Positions 4,707 to 40,685 of a stretch of 64,000 nt of DNA are shown in pieces. The first letter of the stretch is position 1. Every line of letters begins with the position of its first letter. The translations under genes were made by a program, and so were the position numbers. The DNA is taken from assembly GCA_943356465.1 (NCBI GenBank), contig CALREX010000003.1, positions 46,450-110,449 on the forward strand. Reading direction: 5' to 3'. The notes beneath the pieces were generated by a model. The model searched no databases and was not told the origin of the DNA. It saw only the letters and a list, made by a program, of their open reading frames with translations. The stretch is from Candidatus Peribacteria bacterium. Lineage in GTDB: Bacteria; Patescibacteriota; Gracilibacteria; UBA1369; LOWO2-01-FULL-3.

Positions 4707-4782
4707 GGGGACAGAGTTTAATGGTAGAACACATTGGTTCGTCACCCATGAGATGCGGGTTCAAATCCCGTCAGCTCCACCA
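4707..4782 (+). tRNA. aberrant tRNA-like gene, anticodon CGU (Thr), defective acceptor stem; possible pseudo-tRNA or tRNA-like ncRNA
   Basis: Exactly 76 nt with encoded ACCA. D arm GTTT-AATGGTA-GAAC; anticodon arm ATTGG-TTCGTCA-CCCAT; T arm GCGGG-TTCAAAT-CCCGT. Acceptor 5' strand GGGGACA against 3' strand CAGCTCC pairs only at positions 1-4 (including G3:U70). Pairs 5:68, 6:67 and 7:66 are mismatches. Confidence 0.5.
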
Positions 4783-18460: not shown

Positions 18461-20680
18461 CTAAATCAAAGGTTCTTCAAACACCGGAGCACCCTGAGGA
18501 CCAAGATTATCAAACTCACCGGCCTCATCCCACTTCGCCAACATTTTCTCTACATTCTCACGTTTTTCACAATACAAACTACGTGAATTTTCTATAATTT
18601 CTTTCGCATGAGAATCAGTTATTTTTGGAAGATTCAAAGTTTTTCCGGAGAAAGCTTCTCTGATTTCTCCATTTACAGACATTTTACAATAAAATTCACG
18701 AACACCGAGATTTATAATATCTCTTTCTTTGAAGATAGGATTATATTCAGCAGCAAGAGCGCCGGCATCATCAGCACCAACTCTGAAACTGATGATAGAA
18801 CCAACGTTACCAAAAACAGTTTTCTTAACAACATCAGATAATTGCCCCATATACTGATGGGCAAGAGTAAGGTTCAGCCTGTATTTTCTGGCTTCGGACA
18901 AAATTTCCGCAAAAGTATCTGTAGCGAAATTTTGGAACTCATCAACATACAAATAAAAATCCTTTCTATTTTCCTCTTTCATATCGGCACGACTCATCGC
19001 AGCCTGATACATTTTTGTAATAATCATCGCCCCCATAAGTCCGCTGTTTTCTTCACCAAGAAGACCTTTTGACACCTTCATAAGCAAAATCTTCTGCCCA
19101 TCCATCACCTCTCTGATATTAAATTTATTCACAGGCTGACCGACAATATTACGAATCATATTCGTCGCAACGAACTGTCCGACTTTATTCAAAAGCGGAG
19201 TAATAGCTTCAGCATCAAATTTTTCACTCCATCCGGCAAACTCTGAAACCCAGAAATTTTTAACAACATTATCTTTGATTCTAGAGACAATATTTTGTCT
19301 GTAATTTTTATCGGTAAGCATTTTCAAGATCGAAAGCACTGTCGTATTTGGACTATCCAAAAGGGCTAAAACGGTATACCTAAGCACATGTTCGAGCCTA
19401 TCGGTCCAGTTCGACCCAAAAAGTTTTTTGAAAATCTGGATAAAACCAATCGTCACCTGCATCTTATATGCCTCATCAACACTCTCCATCGGATTGAAAG
19501 CAATCGGGAAATTTGTATCGGCAGGGTCAAAATAAATCACATCCTTTATCCTGTTTTCAGGCACAAATTCCATCACATTATCAACAAGATCTCCATGCGG
19601 ATCAAGCACAGCAACACCCTTTCCATTTTCAATATCCTCTTTAATCAAAAGCTCAAGAAGCTTGGATTTTCCGGAACCGGATTTTCCAACGACATAAAGA
19701 TGTCTACGTCTATCATCACGTTTTATACCAAATTCATCGAAGTTATTGTGATAATTTGTTGTACCAAAAACACTGACTTCTCCACTTCCGGCTTTCGGTA
19801 AATCCTGTGGAGCTTCTGACTTTTTAGCAAGCACATGGACAATATGAGGAACAATATCGGCATTCGGCAGATGATAAATTGTCGCAAGTTCATCAGGCCC
19901 TACAATAAAATCATCAGCAAAACTTCTGGCTTTATATTCTTTCAAAAAAGCTTTTTCACTCAAAGGAATAGACTTGAAATATTGAATATCTGTCTCATTA
20001 AATTGAAAAAAACTGTTTACAATAGCATGCAGTTTTCTACTGGCTTCATCCTTAGTGGTACTCAAATAAGCCGCTCTCATAGTGATTTTAAATGGTTCCT
20101 CCTTTGATTTATGCACAGCTTGTTCAGCCCTTATATTTATGACACTATGTGCGTCTTTTACTCTCACACGATCTCTTATGCTAAAAAGTTTTTTGAAACC
20201 ATTCCATTTAAGAAGCCATCTGCGTTTTAGCAAATACCAAGCATTTTGTACAACAGGTTCGGTAACAACCTGAAACCAAACTTGCTCCTTTGTCGCAATC
20301 TTGGAAATAACTGAAAAAAGCCTGCTTAAACTATCTTCATCAAAATGTTTATAAGTTTTGATAGGATAAACATCTCCCATTTCAAAAGTGATTCTAGTTC
20401 CGGCAATAGCCATCTTTTCAGGATTGTAATTATCCACATAATCATTTACAGACTTGATTTCACAGTCCGGATAAGTCGAATAGAAGAAACCTTCCATAGT
20501 CTCATATAGATCATCTGCAACAGCACAGAAAAAGTAAGTATATTGCTCATATCCAAGCATTTCAAAAGATACACTGTGAGCATGTAAAGTTTTATGAAGA
20601 TTTATAAGAAATTCACAGAATATCGATTCCTTTTTTTTCTTGTCATCACCCTGTGGGACTACGACCTGAAAATATCTCAT
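18461..20680 (-). CDS. TraD/VirD4-like (type IV coupling protein family) P-loop NTPase, apparently soluble
   Basis: 739 aa. Walker A VVGKSGSGKSKLL then LDPHGDL; Walker B YLYVDEFQNFAT; TraG-D_C-like ARKYRLNLTLAHQYMGQL. I see no TM segments. Confidence 0.7.
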   Translation of the reverse strand: MRYFQVVVPQGDDKKKKESIFCEFLINLHKTLHAHSVSFEMLGYEQYTYFFCAVADDLYETMEGFFYSTYPDCEIKSVNDYVDNYNPEKMAIAGTRITFEMGDVYPIKTYKHFDEDSLSRLFSVISKIATKEQVWFQVVTEPVVQNAWYLLKRRWLLKWNGFKKLFSIRDRVRVKDAHSVINIRAEQAVHKSKEEPFKITMRAAYLSTTKDEASRKLHAIVNSFFQFNETDIQYFKSIPLSEKAFLKEYKARSFADDFIVGPDELATIYHLPNADIVPHIVHVLAKKSEAPQDLPKAGSGEVSVFGTTNYHNNFDEFGIKRDDRRRHLYVVGKSGSGKSKLLELLIKEDIENGKGVAVLDPHGDLVDNVMEFVPENRIKDVIYFDPADTNFPIAFNPMESVDEAYKMQVTIGFIQIFKKLFGSNWTDRLEHVLRYTVLALLDSPNTTVLSILKMLTDKNYRQNIVSRIKDNVVKNFWVSEFAGWSEKFDAEAITPLLNKVGQFVATNMIRNIVGQPVNKFNIREVMDGQKILLMKVSKGLLGEENSGLMGAMIITKMYQAAMSRADMKEENRKDFYLYVDEFQNFATDTFAEILSEARKYRLNLTLAHQYMGQLSDVVKKTVFGNVGSIISFRVGADDAGALAAEYNPIFKERDIINLGVREFYCKMSVNGEIREAFSGKTLNLPKITDSHAKEIIENSRSLYCEKRENVEKMLAKWDEAGEFDNLGPQGAPVFEEPLI

Positions 20681-20768
20681 GAAATACTATTAAACTAAGA
20701 GTAAATTATACCATTTTAAGGTAAAATCGTCAATCTAAGCCCGATAAAACCACCATTCAATATACAGT

Positions 20769-22469
20769 CTAATAAACTTCCTTCAAATAACATTTTTCAC
20801 AATAAACTTTTTCAATTTTGTCGGATGAATAGACAGACATGATTTTTCCGCCACAATTAGAGCAATTCCTATCAAAAAGCTTCTTTGGATTTTTAAATTT
20901 CATAAGGTCTTGCTGCCTGCAATCTGCACATTTTTTTGAAAGAGGAACTTTCATTTTCCTCGAAAGACTAAGCTCCAAAGAGACAATTTTATAATTTTTA
21001 TCACAATCGCTACATGAAAAAACTTGGCTAAGCACATCATCTTTCGTATCATCTATCCTATCCGGCAAAACATACGGAGACTTAGAAAACTCTTTCGGAT
21101 CAATATCTTTCCACTTCCATCCTTTACTTAAAACCTGCTCCTTCGTCATAGGGAAATAATCATGAGCAACAGTTTCATTGTATGCAAAAGGCGAAATTGA
21201 TATCGGAAAAAATTCTCCATATTCTATATTAGGCTCGATCTCGCTCGCGCCGTGCGCTCGCCCATCTTTAATCATTTGCTCAATAATTTTAGCTTTCAGA
21301 TCCTGATATTCCGCTTCAGAATATTGTTTATTTAAAATACAATTTTTCATTTTTGAATGAAGCCCATCACATCCAAAACATTCATTTACATAAAAACATC
21401 CAAAAAGATATTCACTTTCAGGGGATACACAGGTACAAAAACAAAATTTTGACATATAATTACTGTCCCCACCACAACTCATTTCGTAACAAAGCTGGAT
21501 ATTTTTATCATGCATATTTATGTCCATGGAATCTTTCACGTCTTCACATTCAACAATATATTTTGAATCCTGAACATTAAAACTATCGAAACACATTTCT
21601 GCATTTTTACAGTTTTGAATAAAATCACCGGAAGAATTTTCACAGTTTAATTGATTCTGATATTTTTTCGGAATAGTTTTATTAAACTCAATAAATTCAT
21701 TCATCAAATTTTCTGGATTTTCCTTAAGTTTCTCTTTCACCAAGTTTTCATATTCTTCTTTTGAATATTGCTTATTTTTCACACAATAATTTTTCTTATT
21801 AAGCCCGCTACACATAAAACAATTGCTGCATCCAATCAAGTCCGCGATATAAGAACAATCCGAACAATTCCTACAATTAAAAACAGATTTACAATTATAA
21901 CAATGGCTTGAGTTTGTGCTTCCCTCCGTAAGCTCACACTCATCCAAAAGCATAGAATTCAAACAATCTTTCAAATGCTGACTTTTGCGACAATAAACAC
22001 TGTCCTCAGAAAGATACGTTCCGGGACTCATGTAAACATTCTTACAGTAAGCAAGAAAACTGTTAAATTCAGAGTTCTCATTATTCAATTGATAGAGCCC
22101 CATCTTTGGTACGCTATTCATTAGCCCCTTAAACTGGTCAAAAAATGAACGCGAAAAATCATAATCTTTTCCAAAACTTAGTGGATCCCATTTGTCACTC
22201 CAAAAACAATCGACACAATAAACAGGAAATTTCACATCCTCAGGAAAAACAAAAATTCCACTTTTCCCGCAAAGATCACATTTTCTTTTATACAAATTTT
22301 TCTCATTACGAAAAGAAAGCCTTCGCATAAGCCTGCAATCAGGACAATGGGTCGGACTCGGTATCGGGTGTTTTTTCCCTTTAATTAGAGGAGAAACCTT
22401 ATCATAAAATTTCAAATCCTCATCAGTAATTTCAAATTCAATTCCACAATTTTTACAAGTTTTTTTCAT
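20769..22469 (-). CDS. cysteine-rich multi-zinc-ribbon protein, paralog A
   Basis: ORF 20769..22484 starts at a GTG; the ATG at 22469 gives MKKTCKNCGIEFEI. It has about 42 Cys by hand count, N- and C-terminal triple-CxxC modules, and two internal Cys-repeat blocks each ending in NKQYS.(E/A)EY. Confidence 0.85.
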   Translation of the reverse strand: MKKTCKNCGIEFEITDEDLKFYDKVSPLIKGKKHPIPSPTHCPDCRLMRRLSFRNEKNLYKRKCDLCGKSGIFVFPEDVKFPVYCVDCFWSDKWDPLSFGKDYDFSRSFFDQFKGLMNSVPKMGLYQLNNENSEFNSFLAYCKNVYMSPGTYLSEDSVYCRKSQHLKDCLNSMLLDECELTEGSTNSSHCYNCKSVFNCRNCSDCSYIADLIGCSNCFMCSGLNKKNYCVKNKQYSKEEYENLVKEKLKENPENLMNEFIEFNKTIPKKYQNQLNCENSSGDFIQNCKNAEMCFDSFNVQDSKYIVECEDVKDSMDINMHDKNIQLCYEMSCGGDSNYMSKFCFCTCVSPESEYLFGCFYVNECFGCDGLHSKMKNCILNKQYSEAEYQDLKAKIIEQMIKDGRAHGASEIEPNIEYGEFFPISISPFAYNETVAHDYFPMTKEQVLSKGWKWKDIDPKEFSKSPYVLPDRIDDTKDDVLSQVFSCSDCDKNYKIVSLELSLSRKMKVPLSKKCADCRQQDLMKFKNPKKLFDRNCSNCGGKIMSVYSSDKIEKVYCEKCYLKEVY

Positions 22470-22485
22470 AAAATTTATTAACACA

Positions 22486-24018
22486 TTAAGAAATGGCTAT
22501 CGATTTTCTAAATTTTACACGATTTTGAAAACGAGCCTCATGATGTTTCCGTGGCAATGGAACACCTATTTTTTTCAACAACAAAAACTCTTGTTTAATA
22601 ATTTTAAAAAGTTTAAATGTCTCTGGACACTCATAAACATTAGAAAGATTATTTTCTTCAAAATCATCAATAATATCAGGAATAAGATTTACAGATAATC
22701 CGTTAGTTTTTTTCAATTCTTCTACTTCTCCATATTTCCAACCTATCGCCAAAACCTGCTCTTTCGTCAAATCAGAATAATCCTTAAAAGCACTTTCTTG
22801 ATAAGTAAAAGGGGCTAGATTAAGGGGAAAAGGAGACCCCCATGATTCACCAAGTTCTTCAATAATATGACTTTTTATTTTTTCATATTCCTCTTTTGAA
22901 TACTGTTTATTAAACACACAATACTGTTTACGTCGCAGTGAAATACATCCAATACAATTTTTACATCCCTGCAAAAACTCACTGTATGAACATTCATTAC
23001 ATGTCCAGCAACCAATAACATTATGACAGTTGTAAGATTCAGTGGTGCTAACATTTCCAACAATTAGTTCAGAACCATCCACAATCGCGTGAGAATGATG
23101 CACATCTTTAAGCCTATTAACTCCGATTCTCAAATAAGAACAATCCTCAGCATTTTCAACATCAAAACAATGAAAACAATTTTTAGTATTAACTAAAAAA
23201 TTACCGGATGAGTTTTCCACATTTATCATCCTCTCGTATTTCGATTTTTCAACAATTTCTTTAATAAATTTAATTCTAAATTCATCAAAAACTTTATAAG
23301 ATTTAAGATTAATAAATTTCATTTTTTCCTCATATTCTTGACGTGAAAGTTGTTCATTAAAATAACAATATTTTTGATTTTTAAGCCCACTACAGAAAAA
23401 ACAATTTTGACATCCCCTCATGTCAAAACAGAAATTTAATTCCGAAGAATTATCACACAAAAAACACATTTTACAGTGATACAAATTTCTACAATCAGTA
23501 CATTCGTAACAAAGTTCACTATCACTCAAAAAAGCACAATCTATTGAGTCTTTAGATCCGAAAACACCATGCGTATACATACAGTCTTCATCTCTATCAC
23601 TCAAAATATGCATATAACAATTTTTATTTTTCTCAGCAGCACTCACATAATCACAATTCTCGTTATACGGGACAAAACCGTGTGCCCTTGGAGTTATCTT
23701 GGAAAGCTCTGCATATTGCTCAAAAAAAGGTTTATTAAAATCAAAATCCTTTTCCGGAACATTCCACTTATCGCTGACCCAATAATCATATTTATAAACC
23801 GGAAAGACTGAGTCAGCACCATAAATACTCAAAATATTTTCCCCAGTCGCATCACATTTTCGCATTTTCAAATTCCTCTCATTGCGAAAACAAAGCCTCA
23901 TAACTTCCCTGACCACAGGCGAAAACAAAGGATCCTTGAGCCCCATTTTTCGCAAAACATCTATTTCTCCATCTCTAACTTCAAACTCCTTTTTTGTAAT
24001 CAAACAAGTTTTTTTCAT
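22486..24018 (-). CDS. cysteine-rich protein, paralog B (terminal zinc ligands mostly lost)
   Basis: 510 aa, homologous to A, C and D throughout. The N-terminus is MKKTCLITKKEFEV and the C-terminus ...CPETFKLFKIIKQEF...RKHHEARFQNRVKFRKSIAIS. These lack most of the CxxC pairs. Confidence 0.85.
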   Translation of the reverse strand: MKKTCLITKKEFEVRDGEIDVLRKMGLKDPLFSPVVREVMRLCFRNERNLKMRKCDATGENILSIYGADSVFPVYKYDYWVSDKWNVPEKDFDFNKPFFEQYAELSKITPRAHGFVPYNENCDYVSAAEKNKNCYMHILSDRDEDCMYTHGVFGSKDSIDCAFLSDSELCYECTDCRNLYHCKMCFLCDNSSELNFCFDMRGCQNCFFCSGLKNQKYCYFNEQLSRQEYEEKMKFINLKSYKVFDEFRIKFIKEIVEKSKYERMINVENSSGNFLVNTKNCFHCFDVENAEDCSYLRIGVNRLKDVHHSHAIVDGSELIVGNVSTTESYNCHNVIGCWTCNECSYSEFLQGCKNCIGCISLRRKQYCVFNKQYSKEEYEKIKSHIIEELGESWGSPFPLNLAPFTYQESAFKDYSDLTKEQVLAIGWKYGEVEELKKTNGLSVNLIPDIIDDFEENNLSNVYECPETFKLFKIIKQEFLLLKKIGVPLPRKHHEARFQNRVKFRKSIAIS

Positions 24019-24092
24019 AATTCAAGTATCAACCAATGAATTATTTTTTTCAACACAAAACAAGCACAAAGCAAAACTCGAGACAGAATAAT

Positions 24093-24833
24093 CTACTTAT
24101 TTTTCCCATCCTTGAGGCTACATGCAGTCTTCAAAATTCCATTTTTCAAAGCCTCCAAAAAAGCACCGGCAATTCCAGCCGTCCAAGCACCCCAAAAAGC
24201 CCTTGCAAGAATTGGATATCGGGCAAAAGATGCCACATATTCTCGCACAGAATCGGGAGTATCAACTCCGTGACTCGAAAGAAAACCAAAAATATCAGAA
24301 GCAACCTTGTGATCTAAAAGAACACCAATTATTGCACCAGCAGTAGCAACTCTAATCATAGGAATATCTCGTTTTTTACTCTCGTCTTTTTTCTCGACAA
24401 AATCCTTATAAACATGCTCTTTATTATAATAAAGAATCATAAATCCATGCTGAATATTTTTTTCAATTTCAGCCCAACCATCATCGACATCAGCTTCAAT
24501 ATCAAGAGCCCCAAGACAAAGATAAATAGTTGAAAAATCTTGAGTGCTGATCAAAACAGATCTTCCATCAAAATTAATCCTTTTGAAATATCTATCCTGT
24601 CTCACAGCGTCATCAACAGGCAAACATATAGAAATAGAATTCATACCTCCAAAACAACTACAAATAATCTCCAAATCATCTTTCACCATTCCGCCGCCAA
24701 GCGATTCTCCGGATTTAAGCCCTCCAGCACCTCTAGGCTCAAAACCGGAATCTTGAAGCTTTTTATATACAATTTGTCTAAAAACCAGCTCATGAGTCAA
24801 TTCTATATGTGGCGCTTTAGAGACCTCAATCAT
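24093..24833 (-). CDS. hypothetical protein
   Basis: 246 aa with no recognisable motif. The C-terminal third is Gly/Ala-rich and amphipathic (ATAGAIIGVLL, AFWGAWTAGIAGAFLEAL). Confidence 0.6.
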   Translation of the reverse strand: MIEVSKAPHIELTHELVFRQIVYKKLQDSGFEPRGAGGLKSGESLGGGMVKDDLEIICSCFGGMNSISICLPVDDAVRQDRYFKRINFDGRSVLISTQDFSTIYLCLGALDIEADVDDGWAEIEKNIQHGFMILYYNKEHVYKDFVEKKDESKKRDIPMIRVATAGAIIGVLLDHKVASDIFGFLSSHGVDTPDSVREYVASFARYPILARAFWGAWTAGIAGAFLEALKNGILKTACSLKDGKNK

Positions 24834-25077
24834 AAATATTATAAAAAGTAGAGCCTACTTATATAACATTTAACAAAAAATGTCAATCAAGCACGAATTG
24901 ACCAAACAAAATCGCACCATCAACCGCCACCACTACTTCCGGACGGAGCTGAAACGGCAGAAGAAATACTGCTAGCCAAAGAAGTCATATTCACGAGCAC
25001 TTGCAGAAAATCCAAAAGCAAATTGTGCCAAAAGAGACAATAGAACGACACCAAGATTTTTTTTCATAAGTCCTTTC

Positions 25078-27183
25078 TTACTTATGCATAAGCAAGAAAA
25101 GCGGTGCAAGTACAAGTGTCAAAGTAGACAAAAGTTTTATCAAAACGTGTAGTGAAGGACCTGCTGTGTCCTTGAACGGATCACCAACAGTATCTCCAAC
25201 AACCGCAGCCTTATGCGCAAATGAACCTTTTCCACCGTGAGCGCCCATTTCAATATATTTCTTGGCATTGTCCCAAGCACCTCCTCCATTGTTTAGAGTA
25301 AGCGCCAAGATAACACCGGCAATAGTTCCAACCATAAGAGTCGCTCCAACAGACTCAACTCCAAGAGTAAATCCAACAATAGTAGGTACAATCACGGCTA
25401 TAAGACCAGGAAGCACCATTTCCTTAAGCGCACCTCTCGTGCAAATATCCACACTTCTAGCATAGTCAGGCTTATCAGTTCCTGCCATAATTCCAGGTTT
25501 TTCTTTAAATTGAGCACGAACATCATTGATAATATATCCAGCAGCACGACTCACAGCGCGAATTGCAAAGGAAGAGAAAACAAAAACAAGTCCTGCTCCA
25601 ATAAGTCCTCCGACAAAAACAACCGGCTTGGCAAGATCAACAGTCGTAAGCTTCGCAGCCTCCAAGAAAGCTGAGAAAAGCAAAAATGCCGCAAGAGCTG
25701 CAGAACCTACAGCGTAGCCCTTTGTAAGAGCTTTTGTTGTATTTCCAACAGCATCAAGACGATCTGTTCTTTTTCTGATTTCTTCAGGAGCTTTTGACAT
25801 TTCCACAATTCCACCGGCATTGTCTGTGATAGGTCCAAAATTGTCCATTGCAAGAATATAACCTGCAGTTGCAAGCATTCCCATAGTTGCAACAGCAGTC
25901 CCATAAATACCACCATGCATAATTCCGGTAGCATTACCAAGGAAGTAAGATCCGATCAATGCCGCAGAAATAACAAGAACAGGAAGCCCTGTGCTCTCAA
26001 GACCGACAGCAAAACCACTGATTATATTTGTAGCACCTCCTGTTTCTGAAGCCTTTGCGATTTCTTTCACAGGACGATATTTGTATTCAGTATAATATTG
26101 AGTAATATAAACAAAAGCAATGCTGGCAACGATACCGACAAGTCCAGCACCAAAAAACCACAACCATGCATTTGCCGACGAAGGATTTGCAGCAAGATAT
26201 TCAGCTGATGGCGTAAGGAAAGCATAGCTTAACACAGCAAATCCAATAACAGACAAAATTGTCGTAACAAAATACCCCTTATTCAAGCCTTTCATCGGAT
26301 CTTGAGATTCCTTGATTGAAACAGACATAACTCCGATAATAGAAGCTATAAGTCCACATGCACAAACTAAAAGAGGGAAAATAATTCCTTTGAATCCAAA
26401 AACAGGGAAAAGTGAAATTCCAATAATCATCGCTCCGATATTTTCAGCTGCAGTAGATTCAAAAAGATCAGCTCCACGACCCGCGCAATCTCCAACATTA
26501 TCACCAACTAGATCAGCAATAACAGCAGGGTTTCTAGGATCATCTTCAGGAATTCCAGCTTCAACTTTTCCAACCAAGTCAGCTCCGACATCAGCTGCTT
26601 TTGTATAGATTCCACCTCCAAGTTGTGCGAATAGGGCTACAAAAGAAGCTCCAAATCCAAAACCAACAAGTAAAAGAGGAATTTCTATAGGATTTGCAAC
26701 TCCACCATAAGTTACAAAAAGTCCACCAACTCCAAGAAGAGAAAGTGCAACTACAAGAATACCTGAGAAAGCCCCACCACGAATAGCCATTTGAAGAGCT
26801 TTATTTACACTGTGCTGAGCTGCAGCAGCAGTTCTAAGATTTGCTTTAACACTCATATACATGCCCAAAAATCCAGAAAGAGCAGAACAAGCAGCCCCAA
26901 GGACAAAAGCCAAAGCAGTGTGCCAACCATAGTTGAAATCACCACTTAAAGAATATGCGCCAAGAATCACAATAACCATAACAATCGACAGAGCACCAAT
27001 TGTTACATACTGTCTCTTCAAAAACGCCATCGCTCCCTGCCTAATAGCTTCGGCAATCTCCTGCATTTTTACAGTACCTGTCTCTTGTTTCAAAACATGG
27101 CGCGCAAGTAAAATCGCAATCACAAGAGAAACAAAACAAACTCCAAATATAGAAGCAAAAAGATATGTAGACATAGACATCAA
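25078..27183 (-). CDS. hppA: membrane-bound proton/sodium-translocating pyrophosphatase
   Basis: 701 aa, polytopic. GGIYTKAADVGADLVGK, DNVGDCAGRGADLFES, GGAWDNAKK, DTVGDPFKDTAGPS. Confidence 0.96.
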   Translation of the reverse strand: MMSMSTYLFASIFGVCFVSLVIAILLARHVLKQETGTVKMQEIAEAIRQGAMAFLKRQYVTIGALSIVMVIVILGAYSLSGDFNYGWHTALAFVLGAACSALSGFLGMYMSVKANLRTAAAAQHSVNKALQMAIRGGAFSGILVVALSLLGVGGLFVTYGGVANPIEIPLLLVGFGFGASFVALFAQLGGGIYTKAADVGADLVGKVEAGIPEDDPRNPAVIADLVGDNVGDCAGRGADLFESTAAENIGAMIIGISLFPVFGFKGIIFPLLVCACGLIASIIGVMSVSIKESQDPMKGLNKGYFVTTILSVIGFAVLSYAFLTPSAEYLAANPSSANAWLWFFGAGLVGIVASIAFVYITQYYTEYKYRPVKEIAKASETGGATNIISGFAVGLESTGLPVLVISAALIGSYFLGNATGIMHGGIYGTAVATMGMLATAGYILAMDNFGPITDNAGGIVEMSKAPEEIRKRTDRLDAVGNTTKALTKGYAVGSAALAAFLLFSAFLEAAKLTTVDLAKPVVFVGGLIGAGLVFVFSSFAIRAVSRAAGYIINDVRAQFKEKPGIMAGTDKPDYARSVDICTRGALKEMVLPGLIAVIVPTIVGFTLGVESVGATLMVGTIAGVILALTLNNGGGAWDNAKKYIEMGAHGGKGSFAHKAAVVGDTVGDPFKDTAGPSLHVLIKLLSTLTLVLAPLFLLMHK

Positions 27184-27269
27184 AAAAATATTAAAATATA
27201 TATAAAGTTCGCGGGGAATCTTATCAATTTACTAAGGCGAGTTCAAGTTGATTTTGAGCTTGAGGCCAA

Positions 27270-27415
27270 CGCCAAGAGGAGTATGTGCTAGAATTTTCAC
27301 TCAGACTAAACAGTTTGCTCGCCCTAACATGTACGGGCTCGCAAATTTTGAGTGTACATGTACACTCAAAAGGTTTAGTAATTCATAAAAATTCTAGCAC
27401 ATACTCCTCTTGGCG
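27270..27415. repeat. 146-bp element bounded by perfect 28-bp inverted repeats, enclosing a 26-bp perfect palindrome (MITE-like or structured leader)
   Basis: cgccaagaggagtatgtgctagaatttt (27270-27297) is the exact reverse complement of 27388-27415. The inner palindrome ttttgagtgtacatgtacactcaaaa lies at 27346-27371. Confidence 0.85.
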
Positions 27416-27433
27416 AACTTTCAAAGCAAAAAA

Positions 27434-28174
27434 TTACATAAACATCACCATGGAAATCGCAGAAATCGCTGCAGTTTCCATTCTTAGCACGTTCTCCCCA
27501 AGCAAAAAGATTTTCGCACCATTAGCTTTCGCATCGGAGATTTCCTCGTCTGTAAGCCCTCCTTCAGGTCCAATAACAACACTCACGCCGACAGAGTCGG
27601 CCATATCTTTTCCGTAACTCTCACCTATCTCATTTTTCCCGCATAAATATTCACCAAGTTTTACATCATGTTGCCTCGCGTCACCGACCAAAACCTCCCC
27701 CTTTGGAAAATTATTCAAAAAATCTTTAAACAAAATTACATTATGTAGAAGGGGCAAAACACATCTCTCACTTTGCTCGGCCGCCTCACTGATAATAGAA
27801 AGAAATCTTGGTACATTCCTCATTTCCTTTACCTGACATCTACTGGTCACAATCGGAAAAATATCAGTCACGCCAATCTCTGTAGCTTTTTGTACAATCA
27901 ACTCCAGCGTCGCAGGTTTCTTCGACAAGGCTATATAAAGACTCACTTTTCGTCCATTTACAGGACAATAAGTGACTTTCGATAAAACAATAATCGCCTC
28001 CTTTTTCGAAACGACATCAAACACTCCATTTGCCTTTGCACCTTTACCATCAAGAAAAACACACTTATCCCCCACCTCAAATCTCATCACAGTTTTCATC
28101 TGATGAAGAAGCTCAGGATCTGTTATCACGATCTTTCCTTCCTTAAGTTCCTGATTTATAAAAAAATGTTGCAT
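27434..28174 (-). CDS. rsmE: 16S rRNA (uracil1498-N3)-methyltransferase RsmE
   Basis: 246 aa. HFFINQEL N-terminus with a PUA-like domain, and a C-terminal SPOUT motif VVIGPEGGLTDEE...LGENVLRMETA. Confidence 0.9.
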   Translation of the reverse strand: MQHFFINQELKEGKIVITDPELLHQMKTVMRFEVGDKCVFLDGKGAKANGVFDVVSKKEAIIVLSKVTYCPVNGRKVSLYIALSKKPATLELIVQKATEIGVTDIFPIVTSRCQVKEMRNVPRFLSIISEAAEQSERCVLPLLHNVILFKDFLNNFPKGEVLVGDARQHDVKLGEYLCGKNEIGESYGKDMADSVGVSVVIGPEGGLTDEEISDAKANGAKIFLLGENVLRMETAAISAISMVMFM

Positions 28175-28192
28175 GAAAACAATAATACAAAA

Positions 28193-29863
28193 CTAATACA
28201 CCTCCTTCAAATAACACTCTTCGCAATATACGATTTCCGGCCTCTGCTCGGTATAAACGCTCTTCATGTCTTTTCCGCATTTCATACAATTTCTATCAAA
28301 AAGTTTTCTTTGTGGACGTAGCGCAAGTCTCGCAAAATACCTGCAATCAGGACATTTTTTTGGAGCAGGAACTTTCATTTTTCGATAAAAATCGAGTTCG
28401 TGCTTCAAAATTTTATATCGTTTAGAACACTTTTCACACGTCAAAACTTTATCGCAAATATCATCACCTGTGTCGTTGATATTCTCAGGCACTTCAACCA
28501 AATTACCTGTAGTTGGCGCAGTAATCGCTTCTATTTCCTTCCATTTAAATCCACGTCTTAAAACCTCTTCCTTCGACAAAGGATAATACTCATTTGCCAC
28601 AGTTTCGTTGTAAGCATGTGGAGAAATAGTATGGGGAAAAAATTCACCCCACTCACCAGTTTTCCTCATATGCTCAATGATTTTAGGCACCAATGCCTCG
28701 TATTCTTCCTGCGGATATTGTTTATTAAAAATACAATATTTCTTATTTCTTAAACCAACACATCCAAAACAATTCTGTGATCCAAAACAAGATTCACAAT
28801 ATAAAAGATTATTAGAATTAAATACGTACAAACAAAAATTCACATTATAAGTCGTAATCGTACCAAGAACTTCATATGACAATTCCGGCTTCACATACAT
28901 GTTTGAACAATCCATCAAATCCTTGGTCTGCACACCGACTTGAACATATTTAGCATCTTCACTGTCAGAGACATCATAGCAATCTTCACAATTTTTAGAG
29001 TTCAACAAAAAATCTCCAGTACAATTTTCACAGTTTAAAACATTCGCATATTTATAAATTCTTTTTTTGCGCATTTCATCAAAATCCGCTATCACTTTTC
29101 GAAATTTCTCCGGCGAATTCAAAATGTCAGCAACCTTGTTTTCGTAGTCTGCTTGCGGAAATTTTTGATTTTCGAAATGATATTCTTTACCGACCAAATT
29201 CGTACACAAAAAACAATTTCTGCAATTTTTCAAATTATCACAAAACCAAGAATCGCTTGTATTCTGGGAATTATAAACATATCTACAGTTGTAACATTTC
29301 TCAACATTAAAACATTCGTAAATCAATTCACAGTCATACGCATACGAACAATCAACTGCATTTTTACACCTCTGAAGCAATTTCCCATACCAACAATCCT
29401 CGCAATATTCAGAGGAATTGATCAAATAACAATTTCTGCAATATCCTGTACCAGTAGTATAATCAGAGTTTTCATTATCCATCGCCATCATGCAGGCATG
29501 CGGAACATCAAGCTGAAGCATATGAAATTGCTCAAAAAATGGCTTACTAAAATCAAAATCACGACCATAATCCGTAGCGCTCCAGTCATCAGAAAACCAT
29601 TCCGCGATAGAAAAAACCCTATAATTCGACTCCGGAGAATAAACAGAAACCAAAGGTTTATTTGAAAGCGCCGAAGTGCGCCTATACAAATTATACTCAT
29701 TCCTATGCATAGTTCTCCTCATACACCGACAATCAGGACAAATAGTAGGGGCAGGAATATCAAAACGTTTTCCGCCAAAAATCGGTGAAACTTTTTCTAA
29801 AAATTTCAAATCCTTGTCAGTTATCTCAAATTTCAGACCACACTGTTTACAATTTTTTTCCAT
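28193..29863 (-). CDS. cysteine-rich multi-zinc-ribbon protein, paralog C
   Basis: ORF 28193..29914. The ATG at 29863 gives MEKNCKQCGLKFEI. Same architecture as A, with C-terminus ...CPDCRYF...RNCMKCGKDMKSVY...VYCEECYLKEVY. Confidence 0.85.
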   Translation of the reverse strand: MEKNCKQCGLKFEITDKDLKFLEKVSPIFGGKRFDIPAPTICPDCRCMRRTMHRNEYNLYRRTSALSNKPLVSVYSPESNYRVFSIAEWFSDDWSATDYGRDFDFSKPFFEQFHMLQLDVPHACMMAMDNENSDYTTGTGYCRNCYLINSSEYCEDCWYGKLLQRCKNAVDCSYAYDCELIYECFNVEKCYNCRYVYNSQNTSDSWFCDNLKNCRNCFLCTNLVGKEYHFENQKFPQADYENKVADILNSPEKFRKVIADFDEMRKKRIYKYANVLNCENCTGDFLLNSKNCEDCYDVSDSEDAKYVQVGVQTKDLMDCSNMYVKPELSYEVLGTITTYNVNFCLYVFNSNNLLYCESCFGSQNCFGCVGLRNKKYCIFNKQYPQEEYEALVPKIIEHMRKTGEWGEFFPHTISPHAYNETVANEYYPLSKEEVLRRGFKWKEIEAITAPTTGNLVEVPENINDTGDDICDKVLTCEKCSKRYKILKHELDFYRKMKVPAPKKCPDCRYFARLALRPQRKLFDRNCMKCGKDMKSVYTEQRPEIVYCEECYLKEVY

Positions 29864-29880
29864 ATAAAAATCATAACAAA

Positions 29881-31632
29881 CTAATACACTTCTTTCAAAT
29901 AACAATCCTCGCAATACACAATTTCCGGCCTACCTGGGGCATAAACACTCTTCACATCCTTGCCGCATTTCGCACATTTCCTATCACAAAGCCTGTAATA
30001 ATTATGAAATTTCAACCTGTCAAAATGCCTTTGATCAGGACAAATTCGTGGAATCGGCAGTTTCATTTTCTTATAAAATTTTAATTCCGAAGGAATAACT
30101 TTATAAGCCTTACCTGTCACTTCGCATTTCAAAATTTTCTCACAAATATCATCACCGACCTCTCGAATATCCGCAGGCGGCACGAAATAATCCCCTTCAC
30201 TCGCCATCTCGATCTTCTCATCGCGCCATGCACAACCAAGCTTAAGTGCTTGATCTTTACTCAATGGATAATATTCATGCGCAATCGTTTCATTATACGC
30301 AAAAGCAGAAACATCATACGGAAAAAATTCACCCCATTCTCGATTTTTAGGCTCGGTCTCGCTCGAACTGGCAAAGCCAGATTCTGCTTTAACCTGCGCG
30401 CTCGCGCCGTGCGCTCGCCCAATCCCCCCCATATGTTGAATAATCTTCGACACTAAAACTTCGTATTCCTCTTTTGAATATTGCTTATTAAAGACACAAT
30501 ATTTTTTATTTCTAAGCCCGACACAACCAAAAATATTATGACAATGATGACACTCCATCGAATAATATACATTACTCCCGTACCACGCATAAAAAAGCAT
30601 CATAGACATCTCCAAACCGACAGTCGAACACATACTATAACAAGATCTCACGCCATCAGGAGAACAAAAAGTTATATCACGGGAACCAAAGGAATTTGGC
30701 GTAAAATAGACATGATCACAATCCTCGGAATTTTTCGAATCAAAAGAATTCGTACAATTTTTACAATTATAAACACTTTCACCCGTACAATTTTCACTGC
30801 CAAAAATATGCGACGAAACATGTGGCAAAGTTTTCTTCAGCTCTTCCAATTTTCCACGCAACACCTCTATCTTTTCATTGGTCAAATATTCGTATTCTTT
30901 TTTTATTTCCGCATATTCTTCTTGAGAATACTGCTTATTAAACACACAAAATTCCTTTGCTCTAAGCCCGAAACATCCTATGCAATTTCTACACGACTGA
31001 CAATCTTCAATCATTATTGAGTCGCTGCAATTTCTACAATTCACAAAAAATTTACACGCATAACACATATCACTCGCAATCCCCTGATAACAAAGTTCGC
31101 CAGCATACAGAGTCAAATTATCCACACAGTCCTTGCTGAAAGAAACAAATTTTCCATACATACAATCTTCATTTTTTGCCGCACCAAACATCAAATAACA
31201 ATTTTTCTGTTCCAAAGCATAGTTTGTATAATAACTGTTTTCGCAATTTGTTGTATAAAGCGACATATGCGGAACATCTCGGTACAAAGCCTTAAACTGC
31301 TCTGCAAAAGTTTTCGAAAAATCAAAATCTCGTCCATACTTCAATTCATCCCATTTGTCACTCCACCACGCTTCTTGATCATAAACCTTGAAAGCTTTAT
31401 CAGGAGAATATGTGGAAATAATTTGTTTATCAGTCAGATCACATTTTCTCGCATAAAGTTTACGTTCATTCCTAAAAGAAAGATGCCTCTGATGCTTACA
31501 ATCATGACAAAAATCTGAAACAGGAATAGAAAATTTCCTACCATCAAAAACAGGAGAAATTTTTTCCAAAAACTTCAAATCCTCATCTGTCACTTCAAAC
31601 TTTTCACCACACTGTTTACACATTTTTTCCAT
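29881..31632 (-). CDS. cysteine-rich multi-zinc-ribbon protein, paralog D
   Basis: ORF 29881..31638 starts at a TTG; the ATG at 31632 gives MEKMCKQCGEKFEV. Same architecture, and it carries the GC-rich GRAHGAS... insertion. Confidence 0.85.
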   Translation of the reverse strand: MEKMCKQCGEKFEVTDEDLKFLEKISPVFDGRKFSIPVSDFCHDCKHQRHLSFRNERKLYARKCDLTDKQIISTYSPDKAFKVYDQEAWWSDKWDELKYGRDFDFSKTFAEQFKALYRDVPHMSLYTTNCENSYYTNYALEQKNCYLMFGAAKNEDCMYGKFVSFSKDCVDNLTLYAGELCYQGIASDMCYACKFFVNCRNCSDSIMIEDCQSCRNCIGCFGLRAKEFCVFNKQYSQEEYAEIKKEYEYLTNEKIEVLRGKLEELKKTLPHVSSHIFGSENCTGESVYNCKNCTNSFDSKNSEDCDHVYFTPNSFGSRDITFCSPDGVRSCYSMCSTVGLEMSMMLFYAWYGSNVYYSMECHHCHNIFGCVGLRNKKYCVFNKQYSKEEYEVLVSKIIQHMGGIGRAHGASAQVKAESGFASSSETEPKNREWGEFFPYDVSAFAYNETIAHEYYPLSKDQALKLGCAWRDEKIEMASEGDYFVPPADIREVGDDICEKILKCEVTGKAYKVIPSELKFYKKMKLPIPRICPDQRHFDRLKFHNYYRLCDRKCAKCGKDVKSVYAPGRPEIVYCEDCYLKEVY

Positions 31633-31643
31633 AATCAATAAAA

Positions 31644-35060: not shown

Positions 35061-35411
35061 TTAGAAACTATTTCTGTCTCCTGAGTCTCTCCTTCTAAAA
35101 CCTCCACCTCCGAATCCACCTCCTCCGAAACCTCCACCACCTGTTCTTCTTGGTGGTCGATCTTCCATTGGACGAGCTTCGTTAACAACGAGCTTTCTTC
35201 CTTCCATCTCATTGCCATTCCACATTTCGATAGCTTTTTGAGCTTCTTCTTCTGTGGACATTTCGACGAATCCAAAACCTTTGGATCTGCCTGAAAATTT
35301 GTCAGCGATTACAGCTGCTGATTCAACAGTTCCTGCCTGCGCAAATGCAGTGCGAAGAGATTCTTCTGTTGCTGTGTAAGGTAGATTCCCTACGTATAAT
35401 TTCTTTCCCAT
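35061..35411 (-). CDS. RRM-type RNA-binding protein with Gly-rich tail
   Basis: The ATG at 35411 gives MGKKLYVGNLPY (RNP-2) and KGFGFVEM (RNP-1), with a C-terminal GGGGFGGGGFGGGGFRRR. Confidence 0.9.
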   Translation of the reverse strand: MGKKLYVGNLPYTATEESLRTAFAQAGTVESAAVIADKFSGRSKGFGFVEMSTEEEAQKAIEMWNGNEMEGRKLVVNEARPMEDRPPRRTGGGGFGGGGFGGGGFRRRDSGDRNSF

Positions 35412-35521
35412 AACGGTGATTAAAAAATAACAAAAGGATTTTGCTCTCAACCAAAGCAGAAGTCAATAGAAGATTTGACAAACACGACAATTGTGAACGA
35501 AATAAATCCTCTAAGACTAGT

Positions 35522-36858: not shown

Positions 36859-36991
36859 ATTATTTCGACTCTAAAGGAAAAAATTTTTTTCTGCAAATAA
36901 AACACAAAAATAAATTACATTTTTACTTAAAAAACTCTTGTATTTTTTTTAAATAAGACCTATGTTTTTCATAAATATATAACAACCACAA

Positions 36992-39394
36992 ATGCCACCA
37001 AACAAAGACTTACTTGGCAAAAATATTATCTTCATAAATTCAGGAGGAAAAAAGAAAAAATTCACACTTGAAAAAGCAAAAAGCCTAGGGTTAAACATCA
37101 TTTTGGTTAATCAAAAACTGGACACAAACAAAAAACTCATCGACCACTTCATCGAAGCAGACACTTACAACCATAAAGAAGTAATCGATAAATTAAAATT
37201 ATTTCAAAAAAACAATCCAGAAATAAAATTCGACGGAGCAATAACATTCTGGGAAGACGATATTCCACTTTTAGCAAGAGTATGTGAAGAATTTAAACTC
37301 TCCGGAAACAGCTACGAAACTTCAATAAGGACAAGAAATAAATACGAAATGAGAAAACGTCTTGCCGAAACAAACCTCGGAAATCCACTTTTTCATATGG
37401 TAAAAAATAAAAACGATTTAAAAAAAGCCATAGAGCAAATAGGATTTCCTGCAGTAATGAAGCCTGCATGGGGAGCAGACAGTGAATTTGTAATATTGGT
37501 AAAAAACGAAGAAGAGGCAAAAAGCACTTTGGATTATTTGCAAAAAAACTGTAATGAAAAATTCAATCCGATTTTCAAATATAACAATGGAACTTTTTTG
37601 TTTGAAGAATATATGGATGGAATGGAAATAAGTTTGGAATGTTTTTCTCAATATGGAATCCCGCATGTCATAGGAATAAATGAAAAACAACCTATAAAAC
37701 CTCCTTACTTTGTGGAATACGGAGATATCGCTCCGGCAAGGTTAGACGACGAAGTCGAAATGGAAGCAATAAAATTGGCGGAATCAGCTTTGATAGCTTT
37801 AGGAGTACAAAACAGCCTTGCACATATAGAAGTAAAAATAACTTCAACAGGTACAAAAATTGTAGAGGTCGGATCGAGAATGGGTGGAGATGATATATAC
37901 ACAAACGTGAAAAATGTTTGGGACACAGACATGGTGGAAATAGGAATAAGAATAGCCTGCGGCCTAAACACAAATTATAAAAACACTCCGTCAAAAGGAT
38001 GCGTAATATGCCGTTATTTCATTCCAAATCATTCAGGAATAATAACAAATATTGAAGGAGTAAAAGAAGCACAACAAATAAAAAATGTTCTTCAATTAAT
38101 CATAACAAAAGATGTTGGAGATGCAATTTTAGTACCACCTGAAGGATTCGAAAATGCAGGATGGGCTGTAGTAAAAGGGCGAACATATCAGGAAGCGGAA
38201 ACACTGATGAACAGAGTAACAAGCAAAATCGAGATAAATGTAACTCGTTTCCACAAAGATTCATCACTTGGAAAAACAATAAGACAATCCCCTCTTTCAT
38301 CAGCATCAATTGTCCGCGAACAAATCATAAAAGCTTCAAAAATAGAAAAACTCAGAATAGTGGATAAGAATAAAATCAAAAAATTACACATTGGAATCGT
38401 TGCAAATTCTCTGATTCCTATATACAGCGAAAATTCAAAGAAATTTTTCACAGGAGAAGATATTAAAAATATATTAGAAGCAAAAGGCTACAATGTAACT
38501 TTATTTGATGTAGGAGAATCAACATTGCCAATCGAAAAAATTCAAAGAGCAAATCTCGATTTCGTAATGAATCTCTGCGAAGCAATTTACGATTCACCAT
38601 TGCTAAAATCACACTCTGCAGCATTATTCGACATGCTACAATTGCCTTACACAGGGTCAAATCCTGGAACACTATCACTCTCTTTGGATAAAATAAAAGT
38701 AAAAAAAATCCTTGAATATCACGATATTCCGACACCGGCATGGGATTATGTTGAAAGTATGGACGACGAAATAAGCGACGAACTTGAGTATCCACTAATT
38801 GTAAAACCGGCAAACTCCGACAACTTTTTCGGAATAAACAATCAATCAGTTGTAACTAATGAAAAAGACCTAAAAAAACAACTACGCACAATAATAGAAG
38901 GATTCAAACGACCTGCACTGATAGAGGAATATATTGAAGGAACAGAAATAGATGTTTCGCTCATCGGAAATGAAGAAGAAGTGGAAGTTTTACCGCTTAT
39001 ACGTTCAACTTTTGATAAAACGCCAAGAGACCATTGGCATATATATTCATCAGACCTTTGGGATGACAAAAATAAACATATTTTAGACACAATAAAAGTC
39101 GAAAAACCTGCAAAAATAAACAAAAAACTTGAGACATTAATAAGCGAAATGGCACTGGACGTTTACAATATTTTCGACTGCCACGATTACGGAAAAATAG
39201 AGTTCAGAGTAGATAAAGAAGGGAATCCATACGTAATAGAATTAAATCCAAATCCACCGATAGAAAGAGATAATTTCATTGCCATATCGGCAAAACTCGC
39301 CGGATACAGCTATGAAGATTTGATAGAAAAAATACTTTGGCTCGCTATACAAAGATACAAAGACAAACCACCGTTCTATCATCTACAATTCTAA
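36992..39394 (+). CDS. fusion of two ATP-grasp ligase modules (L-amino-acid-ligase-like N-half, D-Ala-D-Ala-ligase-like C-half)
   Basis: 800 aa. N-half: FPAVMKPAWGADSEFVILV, FEEYMDGMEISLECF, KIVEVGSRMGGD. C-half: LHIGIVAN...ALFDMLQLPYTGSNP, YPLIVKPANSDNFFGI, LIEEYIEGTEIDVSLIG, PYVIELNPNP. Confidence 0.85.
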   Translation: MPPNKDLLGKNIIFINSGGKKKKFTLEKAKSLGLNIILVNQKLDTNKKLIDHFIEADTYNHKEVIDKLKLFQKNNPEIKFDGAITFWEDDIPLLARVCEEFKLSGNSYETSIRTRNKYEMRKRLAETNLGNPLFHMVKNKNDLKKAIEQIGFPAVMKPAWGADSEFVILVKNEEEAKSTLDYLQKNCNEKFNPIFKYNNGTFLFEEYMDGMEISLECFSQYGIPHVIGINEKQPIKPPYFVEYGDIAPARLDDEVEMEAIKLAESALIALGVQNSLAHIEVKITSTGTKIVEVGSRMGGDDIYTNVKNVWDTDMVEIGIRIACGLNTNYKNTPSKGCVICRYFIPNHSGIITNIEGVKEAQQIKNVLQLIITKDVGDAILVPPEGFENAGWAVVKGRTYQEAETLMNRVTSKIEINVTRFHKDSSLGKTIRQSPLSSASIVREQIIKASKIEKLRIVDKNKIKKLHIGIVANSLIPIYSENSKKFFTGEDIKNILEAKGYNVTLFDVGESTLPIEKIQRANLDFVMNLCEAIYDSPLLKSHSAALFDMLQLPYTGSNPGTLSLSLDKIKVKKILEYHDIPTPAWDYVESMDDEISDELEYPLIVKPANSDNFFGINNQSVVTNEKDLKKQLRTIIEGFKRPALIEEYIEGTEIDVSLIGNEEEVEVLPLIRSTFDKTPRDHWHIYSSDLWDDKNKHILDTIKVEKPAKINKKLETLISEMALDVYNIFDCHDYGKIEFRVDKEGNPYVIELNPNPPIERDNFIAISAKLAGYSYEDLIEKILWLAIQRYKDKPPFYHLQF

Positions 39395-40683: not shown

Positions 40684-40685
40684 AA

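Follow-up and report, generated by a model that had tools for sequence, protein, structure and literature searches.

Four paralogous cysteine-rich genes in a Peribacteria chromosome

The stretch of DNA analyzed here (hereafter, the window) consists of 64,000 nucleotides of contig CALREX010000003.1 from a Candidatus Peribacteria bacterium and carries, on its minus strand, four paralogous genes for cysteine-rich proteins, which we call A to D. Judged from their sequences, the four proteins are members of a very large and unnamed family of soluble proteins of ∼550 amino acids (aa) from the candidate phyla radiation (CPR), referred to below as the double-solenoid family. The genes are as follows.

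20769..22469, minus strand: paralog A, 566 aa, 42 Cys; all four Zn-finger ligand sets intact (from the open reading frame, the alignment, and the ligand columns)
22486..24018, minus strand: paralog B, 510 aa, 30 Cys; four Zn-ligand sets lost, last finger deleted
28193..29863, minus strand: paralog C, 556 aa, 40 Cys; N-terminal finger 1 and both C-terminal fingers intact
29881..31632, minus strand: paralog D, 583 aa, 39 Cys; N-terminal finger 1 and C-terminal finger 2 intact

Full-length alignment gives an identity to A of 35% for B and 43% for both C and D (35 to 44% among the four paralogs), and the four proteins score 659 to 827 bits against the family hidden Markov model (HMM), far above chance, with D at 827 bits. 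The initial annotation of this DNA had described the four open reading frames as homologous end to end; the homology stands, with the restriction that B lacks the last ∼46 residues, the proteins being otherwise alignable over their entire length. The hand count of ∼42 Cys in ∼566 aa given there for A was exact (42/566, or 7.4%); Cys makes up 5.9 to 7.4% of the residues of the four proteins, in which CxxCxxC runs are present. As previously claimed, neither a transmembrane (TM) helix nor a signal peptide was found in A to D (maximum Kyte-Doolittle 19-mer, 0.87 to 1.14), and the cytoplasmic location proposed for these soluble proteins agrees with our analysis.

The spacers of 16 nucleotides (nt) between B and A and of 17 nt between D and C had also been given correctly, as had the three genes between the two pairs (an RsmE-type methyltransferase, an H+-pyrophosphatase, and an orphan gene) and the VirD4/TraD-like ATPase and P-type cation ATPase that flank the region. 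However, close spacing does not single out the pairs: the spacers to unrelated neighbors are equally short (P-type ATPase to D, 11 nt; C to rsmE, 18 nt), so that the tight packing is a property of the genome.

Two beta-solenoids between zinc-finger modules

From the N to the C terminus, the layout of the double-solenoid family comprises a treble-clef Zn finger, a CxxC-x17-CxxC Zn ribbon, a short linker, a first solenoid, a helical hairpin, a homologous second solenoid, an acidic linker, and a second two-finger module. In paralog A, the main parts lie at the following positions.

22185..22469, minus strand: residues 1 to 95, N-terminal module (treble-clef finger, Arg-rich helix, and CxxC-x17-CxxC ribbon); basic
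21762..22109, minus strand: residues 121 to 236, first beta-solenoid, ∼9 coils of 12 residues (from Cys ladders and DSSP)
21318..21659, minus strand: residues 271 to 384, second beta-solenoid, homologous to the first (from hhalign and the register)
20772..21023, minus strand: residues 483 to 566, C-terminal module (finger and CxxC-x17-CxxC ribbon); strongly basic

An internal duplication of the Cys-repeat core had been proposed, and the comparison of solenoid 1 (A 120-250) with solenoid 2 (A 268-402) by hhalign clearly supports it (probability 99.9%, E = 2e-37, 125 columns); all the tag sequences quoted for it are present. The core follows a strict register of 12 residues, x-(E/K)-(N/D)-C-Y-x7, the coil series ENS/KNC/EDC/KDC/ELC is common to both halves, and both solenoids terminate in the end cap C-x-G-L-R-x-K-x-Y-C-I-x-N-K-Q-Y-S-K-E-E-Y (in a looser form, with x in place of the Ile). 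The motif N(C/V/S)EN(S/C)(S/T)G, previously read as a separator of the two blocks, is actually the first coil of solenoid 2 (NCENSSG) and is homologous to the NENS of solenoid 1. Core Cys occur at every third residue, i.e., at the inward positions of the 12-residue coils, and form ladders at positions 145, 157, 169, 181, 193, 205, 217, and 229 in solenoid 1 of A, and three parallel ladders. In the AlphaFold2 (AF2) model of A (pLDDT 89.8, pTM 0.90, from a 148-sequence alignment), DSSP assigns beta-bridges every 3 residues through both cores.

The N-terminal (A 1-95) and C-terminal (A 483-566) modules are homologous as well (hhalign probability 99.8%, E = 2.7e-30). The C-terminal module had been thought to mirror the N-terminal one; the homology is genuine but the mirrored order is not, since each finger of one module aligns with the finger of the same number in the other, in the same order, and the modules are thus direct repeats. 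Likewise, a start with three or four CxxC pairs, attributed to all four proteins, is true of A only, as C and D keep only finger 1 of the N-terminal module and B keeps none. The median pI over the family is 8.4 for the N-terminal module and 9.2 for the C-terminal module (net charge +7), and the solenoids and linkers are acidic (4.4 to 5.3). Each end has basic, Arg-rich helices behind its Zn knuckles, with R46, R50, R54, R62, R518, and R522 at least 90% conserved, in a family with a mean column identity of 42%. The ends are constant and the rod is subfamily-specific: columns that are variable across the family and conserved within subfamilies represent 21 to 22% of the solenoids versus 0 to 3% of the Zn modules and linkers.

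Several members depart from this layout. Core-only members of ∼310 aa (profile positions ∼99 to 400) consist of the double solenoid without a Zn-finger module, and some of them adjoin the DUF8128-ATPase described below.

L049 (2892-3824, 16022-16954), L054 (6673-7608), L084 (6427-8748), and L104 (1303-4864), fetched loci: core-only members

Members P0234 (726 aa) and P0378 (731 aa) possess an N-terminal GNAT acetyltransferase domain (E ∼1e-9), a rare type of fusion, and P0239 (675 aa) has a similar N-terminal extension with no Pfam match at E ≤ 0.01. P0246 (808 aa) carries a 250-aa C-terminal extension in which no family is detectable; we dropped its reading as a winged helix because hhalign against the array-associated TrmB group gave a probability of only 0.2%.

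Zinc ligands and core cysteines

Co-variation of the Cys columns, computed over 620 non-redundant family members, separates the fingers from the core. The Zn-finger ligand sets co-vary strongly (67/85/88, r = 0.97 to 0.99; 536/539/557/560, r = 0.85 to 0.96; 8/42/45, r = 0.69 to 0.88; 489/514/517, r = 0.57 to 0.94), and the four fingers are kept or lost as all-or-none sets. In contrast, the core Cys columns reach at most r = 0.41, between ladder neighbors 12 residues apart, and contain 10 to 90% Cys, the alternatives being Ser, Leu, Val, Ile, Gly, and Ala. Because of this free substitution and low co-variation compared to the Zn-finger sets, the core cysteines look like inward packing residues of a narrow solenoid rather than Fe-S or multi-metal sites. 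Fe-S-type ligand sets, in which three or four Cys are kept or lost together, were not found in the core, and no Pfam or NCBIfam match to an Fe-S family was obtained for A to D (for Pfam, also over 88 members). The Fe-S or multi-metal core envisaged in the initial annotation is therefore not supported, the Zn-finger controls (r = 0.85 to 0.99) standing well apart from it, whereas its zinc ribbons are genuine treble-clef/ribbon modules: their ligand sets behave as units, and 30 of the 88 diverse members match PF23477 and 14 match PF13451 at E ≤ 1e-3, no other Pfam family being reached.

Paralog A contains two exact CxxC-x17-CxxC patterns (C536-x2-C539/C557-x2-C560 and C64/C67/C85/C88), a domain type that was shown by inductively coupled plasma mass spectrometry to bind Zn in small proteins of Methanosarcina (PMC12704099). 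Counting intact ligand sets, we predict four Zn sites in A, three in C, two in D, and none in B, and the Zn of this family is likely structural, with zero to four predicted sites per paralog. N-terminal finger 2 is kept in only ∼19% of the family, which makes A unusual in having it.

Searches for known families and folds

Profile searches with A to D gave no confident match to a family of known function. In Pfam and NCBIfam, the matches were below threshold and confined to the termini: PF13451 (zf_Tbcl; 16.2 bits for A and 18.2 for C, cutoff 24), PF23477 (zf_Tbcl_2; 15 to 16.2 bits for the window proteins, cutoff 27), and TIGR04272 (13.7 bits, cutoff 36). Member P0243 attains 23.8 bits with PF13451, and some family members bear a precomputed PF13451 label. 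Since 30 of the 88 members reach E ≤ 1e-3 with PF23477, we regard the window proteins as divergent zf_Tbcl_2 relatives despite their scores below the cutoff. PADLOC gave no match to A to D at E ≤ 0.1, and among PHROGs the core weakly matches phrog_15341, of unknown function (E from 2.5e-6 to 5e-3). In sequence searches of the PDB, with A alone and with a 148-sequence profile, the last finger showed LIM-like similarity (E = 0.007); the only solenoid match of the family profile was the Tenebrio molitor antifreeze protein (TmAFP, PDB 1EZG), at a nonsignificant E of 7.8. Foldseek found nothing at E ≤ 0.001 for the AF2 model in PDB and BFVD, and 1EZG is not among the top 50 matches listed. With tblastn against phage and plasmid collections, we obtained no relative of the core, one finger-only phage match, and no plasmid match.

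Our literature searches found no published description of the family, and public annotations call its proteins hypothetical or give them no name. The Cys-rich proteins of a paper on Peribacteria, considered as possible members, were ruled out, as they are large and secreted. The double-solenoid family is thus undescribed, its core lying outside all Pfam, NCBIfam, and PADLOC models and having no structural relative in PDB or BFVD, in line with the earlier statement that the four proteins belong to no characterized family. Its building blocks, Zn ribbons and a beta-solenoid, are themselves known.

Distribution, arrays, and age of the paralogs

The family counts more than 4,448 matches at 90% clustering, among the matches listed, and 4,987 clusters at 50% identity with E ≤ 1e-3 (2,211 with E ≤ 1e-30). 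At least 596 stretches with family genes are found in GTDB species representatives, and the lineages concerned include Peribacteria, Peregrinibacteria, Gracilibacteria, Abawacabacteria, Paceibacterota, Nomura-, Giovannoni-, and Gribaldobacteria, as well as metagenome-assembled genomes labeled Saccharibacteria. We fetched 77 loci for a survey of gene neighborhoods. The family genes form same-strand arrays of 1 to 8-9 genes, with up to 8-9 copies per ∼21 kb, and 47 of the 131 adjacent family-gene pairs lie less than 30 nt apart. The closed 1.31-Mb Peribacteria chromosome OZ246396.1 harbors at least eight full-length copies in ∼40 kb, which amount to ∼1% of its DNA.

Copies resemble those of other species more than their own neighbors, with a median best identity of 43% within a locus versus 56% to a copy in another species, and the closest relative of 90% of the copies resides in another genome. 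Orthologs share 50 to 63% identity across orders. For the window proteins, orthologs of D elsewhere are 49 to 63% identical, the nearest relatives of C are found in other genomes (50 to 54%), and B has an ortholog group of its own (49 to 89% identity, 476 to 540 aa), which constitutes a conserved Zn-less subfamily. The paralog subfamilies are therefore old and conserved, and the terms "lineage-specific" and "actively diversifying" used in the initial annotation are unsupported, given the spread of the family across several CPR classes and the closeness of the paralogs to copies in other genomes.

The same annotation had suggested that the proteins work as hetero-pairs. The order B-like, A-like, DUF8128-ATPase does recur in a close relative (locus L165), but arrays range from 1 to 8-9 genes, and the orthologs of B either stand by themselves behind a TrmB gene or come third in an array of eight genes; these variable partners argue against obligatory pairs. 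Two further family genes are located on a 5.1-kb contig of very low coverage (L076, contig JBAZVA010000083.1) binned as a Woesearchaeota archaeon, a placement due to misbinning or, alternatively, to transfer of the genes into DPANN archaea.

An orphan secretion-type ATPase and regulators beside the arrays

Immediately downstream of A lies the gene of a P-loop ATPase.

18461..20680, minus strand: DUF8128 plus VirB4/VirD4/HerA-type P-loop ATPase, 88 nt downstream of A (from Pfam, Foldseek, and synteny)

This protein of ∼740 aa, hereafter the DUF8128-ATPase, has an N-terminal DUF8128 domain according to precomputed labels, followed by Walker A (GKSGSGKS at 332) and Walker B (YLYVDE at 576) motifs. 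It matches PF02534 (T4SS-DNA_transf) with 35.7 bits (cutoff 20.1) and PF10412 (TrwB_AAD_bind) with 32.5 bits (cutoff 20.5), scores far under the cutoffs of all the NCBIfam equivalogs of type IV coupling proteins (T4CPs), and in PADLOC hits generic HerA/mad8 ATPase models only. No TM segment was found (maximum Kyte-Doolittle 19-mer, 1.26). Its structural model is of moderate confidence (pLDDT 69.6) and matches TrwK/VirB4 best in Foldseek (E = 8e-15), then HerA, TrwB (E = 5e-10), and DotL (complex 6SZ9). No relaxase or type IV secretion system (T4SS) channel gene was found beside it among the genes annotated, the neighbors being genes for an AI-2E transporter, an SLH protein, RNase Y, and GroEL. 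The DUF8128-ATPase also matches phrog_5156, of unknown function (E = 1.6e-64), and gp156 of Bacillus phage G (L163, 6792-9269) resembles it at 26% identity. In this phage, gp156 comes after a gene annotated as VirB-like and no family gene is found nearby; jumbo phages carry a related two-gene ATPase module.

The genomic link between the arrays and this orphan secretion-type ATPase is recurrent but partial. The initial annotation had proposed a survey for co-occurrence with the TraD-like ATPase, and the latter recurs at 21 of the 77 loci, usually directly after the last family gene. From the ATPase side, ∼18 of 80 metagenome loci anchored on the ATPase have family genes within 10 kb, including lineages with a split or duplicated ATPase. 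Locus L133 has a family gene that begins 2 nt after a DUF8128-only gene and precedes the P-loop gene, locus L142 is ordered ATPase-F-F-ATPase (F, family gene), and of four ATPase orthologs located on long contigs, three are preceded by 1, 3, or 8 family genes. Elsewhere in the CPR, the ATPase gene has no family gene nearby and lies among apparent topA, a sigma-like helix-turn-helix (HTH) gene, ftsQ-murG-ftsW, or secDF, as judged from representative sequences. The ATPase is an orphan in Patescibacteria, where a survey counted 5,713 homologs, only 148 of them near virB4, and raised exaptation as a possibility; in Ca. S. epibionticum, epibiotic growth required other T4SS genes but not the T4CP homolog (PMC12102498).

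The other recurrent neighbor is a TrmB-type HTH regulator (∼256 aa, PF01978, E = 5e-14), present at 31 of the 77 loci, divergently transcribed, and located upstream of or between array segments. The window contains no TrmB-like gene. In L161 (6131-6667, 16618-17154) and in L166, ORF6N/KilA-N-type genes take the place of TrmB.

L166 7014-7555, 9263-9844, and 14023-14562: small divergent ORF6N/KilA-N-type genes

Locus L166 also has a ParE/Phd toxin-antitoxin pair inside the array, and family genes on both sides of the ATPase.

Promoter-like sites and other features of the window

Two sites of the region stand out by their match to the sigma-70 consensus.

20705..20733, minus strand: best sigma-70-like match, TTGACG-17-TATAAT with TG, within the 88 nt that separate A from the ATPase gene; agreement at 11 of 12 hexamer positions (consensus match only)
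29870..29898, minus strand: second-best promoter-like site, TTGAAA-17-TATGAT with TG, at the 3' end of D just upstream of the start of C (consensus only)

The first is the top score in 16.6 kb; the total of 61 promoter-like sites in the region is not above expectation (50.5 ± 6.7 after shuffling). The window is part of the core chromosome and not a mobile element, since dnaA (4971-6410) and genes for an RseP-like protease, GroEL, and RNase Y are present. A weak Rfam tRNA match beside dnaA (4707-4779, plus strand, 34.1 bits, gathering 29) was not reported by ARAGORN. The orphan 246-aa gene between the pairs (24093-24833, minus strand) has no Pfam, NCBIfam, PADLOC, or PHROG match; its one relative among the fetched loci (L048, 4535-5284, 35% identity) is situated upstream of a TrmB gene and family genes. 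Positions 35061-35450 (minus strand) encode a small RNA-binding protein of the RRM type, whose C-terminal tail is rich in Gly and Arg (GGGGFGGGGFGGGGFRRRD). Consecutive ATP-grasp/L-amino-acid-ligase-like genes occupy 36992-41984 (plus strand) and form a possible peptide-ligase cluster. A double ATP-grasp protein of 800 aa, whose C-terminal domain is of the D-Ala-D-Ala-ligase type, comes first and an ATP-grasp protein of 448 aa second; behind them lies a 432-aa open reading frame. The unbroken run of minus-strand genes from 16.4 to 36.9 kb flips to the plus strand at ∼36.9 kb (∼36860-36990), where the GC skew shifts from ∼-0.25 to ∼0.

Proposed role and alternatives

Our working hypothesis, a tentative one, is that the double-solenoid proteins may act as rigid adaptors or clients of the DUF8128-ATPase, with constant Zn-finger ends and paralog-specific solenoid surfaces. 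With their basic ends, all the proteins would bind the same partner, be it the ATPase, nucleic acid, or both. Each paralog would have its own ligand specificity, since the solenoid surfaces differ between subfamilies and are conserved within them, and the neighboring TrmB or ORF6N regulators would choose which paralogs get expressed. A broader and more doubtful proposal is that the double-solenoid proteins and the soluble DUF8128-ATPase might form an unrecognized CPR-specific machine, in which an exapted hexameric motor would be served by regulated, interchangeable adaptors or clients.

Several observations weigh against a partnership with the ATPase. Family genes are absent within 10 kb of most ATPase homologs from other CPR lineages, adjacency is seen in 11 of the 48 loci with the downstream side visible, and within the window the D-C pair is 7.5 kb away from the ATPase, which has its own strong promoter-like site (a consensus match). 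The block formed by the genes for the ATPase, AI-2E transporter, SLH protein, RNase Y, and GroEL is likewise syntenic, and gene order in compact genomes may be kept for non-functional reasons. We found no fusion of a family protein with the ATPase or with a regulator. Any physical or functional link with the ATPase is suggested indirectly, by gene adjacency, and nucleic-acid binding by the ends is suggested only by their charge; the conserved polar residues N380, Y383, Y430, E499, D92, D104, and Q112 could equally mark an active site.

The partial character of the ATPase adjacency would be expected if the proteins were autonomous nucleic-acid binders (regulators, nucleoid-associated proteins, or RNA/tRNA-binding proteins), whose Zn ends bind while the solenoid serves as a spacer or rod and the ATPase is a bystander. 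The basic, Arg-rich helices behind the Zn knuckles, with their six highly conserved Arg, fit this explanation, as do the related CxxC-x17-CxxC ribbons of transcription proteins (PMC12704099) and the rare GNAT fusions of P0234 and P0378, which suggest the binding of a macromolecular substrate. Nevertheless, we consider it rather unlikely: the core-only forms at L049, L054, L084, and L104 have no finger and the B-type subfamily has lost all its Zn sites, so that the fingers appear accessory rather than the functional heart of these proteins; no known DNA- or RNA-binding family is matched; and 8-9 paralogs per 1.3-Mb genome are many for regulators of this size. The vicinity of a T4SS-type ATPase, the multigene arrays under separate regulators, and the positive charge of the C-terminal module (median, +7), a feature that resembles the charged C-terminal signals of T4SS substrates, could also denote effectors that the VirB4/VirD4-like ATPase passes to a secretion channel and into the host of the epibiont, the arrays being their repertoire. 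Such a role is distinctly improbable for proteins that are tightly folded, Zn stabilized, and highly conserved, both across orders and in their column mean, unlike fast-evolving effectors. Moreover, the annotated window genes include no T4SS channel gene, the DUF8128-ATPase lacks the membrane anchor of coupling proteins, and in Patescibacteria VirD4-like genes are seldom near virB4 and the T4CP homolog of Ca. S. epibionticum is dispensable for epibiotic growth (PMC12102498).

The model of the initial annotation, i.e., lineage-specific, actively diversifying proteins with Zn and Fe-S sites that function as hetero-pairs, drew on the high Cys content with its CxxCxxC runs and on the 16- to 17-nt coupling of both pairs, and the B-like, A-like, ATPase order of L165 also speaks for it. 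It is already largely refuted and, in our estimation, very unlikely: the family is CPR-wide and its paralogs are old, the core Cys are swapped for Ser, Leu, or Val without co-varying as tetrads, B has no metal site at all, array sizes and the partners of B orthologs vary, and unrelated neighbor genes are equally close. With ∼40 Cys per protein spaced 3 residues apart in narrow coils, many gene copies, and regulator genes beside the arrays, one may also think of a buffer of thiols or metals, in which the proteins would take up oxidants or soft metals in the cytoplasm with high capacity and the ladder Cys would form disulfides or bind metal reversibly. We give this idea about as little credit, as single Cys positions are only 30 to 80% conserved and often hydrophobic instead, a bulk buffer would not need the many invariant polar and aromatic non-Cys residues and the subfamily surfaces, and the adjoining P-type ATPase has the Cation_ATPase_N/C domains of a Ca/Mg-type pump and matches no heavy-metal-type domain. 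Finally, the weak PDB matches of the AF2 model in Foldseek are all left-handed beta-helix proteins, which, together with the rare GNAT fusions, brings to mind an acyltransferase-type enzyme similar to LpxD or GlmU. This reading, already disfavored, is the least plausible of all: the matches have E ≥ 0.2 and TM scores ≤ 0.24, the coils count 12 and not 18 residues with no hexapeptide motif, and none of the 88 members matches the Pfam Hexapep family.

Patescibacteria represent a large share of bacterial diversity, and their ∼1-Mb genomes leave little room for spare genes. The double-solenoid family, for all its thousands of sequence clusters, is unnamed, lacks structural relatives, and has a core that no Pfam model describes; modeling the solenoid core as a domain would give a label to thousands of "hypothetical proteins". 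With this family, the orphan VirD4-like ATPases that are widespread in Patescibacteria acquire a first concrete partner at the genomic level, and a testable hypothesis is available for both. If true, the proposed machine would account for the orphan coupling-protein genes that thousands of Patescibacteria retain far away from any T4SS. The cytoplasmic solenoid, with its 12-residue Cys ladders and optional Zn-finger caps, is also of structural interest, and natural Zn-free (B-type) and core-only variants are available for comparison.

Comparison with known systems

The terminal modules share with zf_Tbcl, zf_Tbcl_2, and TIGR04272 the two-finger ligand patterns, including the 17 residues between CxxC pairs. 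Those families are small, stand-alone or repeated fingers of unknown role, whereas here the fingers cap a double solenoid of ∼290 residues and have lost their ligands in many members, B included. As for the solenoid, TmAFP likewise has 12-residue coils, inward Cys, and a very narrow section, but it is a secreted, disulfide-bonded protein; the double-solenoid family has neither the Thr-x-Thr ice-binding face nor a signal peptide, and exchanges Cys for Ser, Leu, or Val. Left-handed beta-helix proteins (LpxD, GlmU, and gamma-carbonic anhydrase) have the general beta-solenoid shape in common with the family but are built from 18-residue coils of hexapeptides. The family may also be likened to pentapeptide-repeat proteins, which are soluble beta-solenoids of mostly unknown function, occur as many paralogs per genome, and act by surface mimicry or binding rather than catalysis; these differ by their 5-residue units, 20-residue coils, and lack of Cys ladders and Zn-finger caps, and no match to them in sequence or fold was seen.

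The DUF8128-ATPase has in common with the type IV coupling proteins (VirD4/TraD/TrwB) a P-loop domain that scores above the PF02534 and PF10412 cutoffs, and differs from them in that it is devoid of their N-terminal membrane anchor. For the adaptor hypothesis, our working analogy is the DotN/IcmSW-DotL system of Legionella, to which the double-solenoid family has no detected similarity in sequence or structure. In that system, small soluble adaptors, some of which bind Zn, attach to a VirD4-type ATPase and determine which substrates it handles; the DUF8128-ATPase, for its part, is soluble, and its overall build is nearest to that of VirB4/TrwK.

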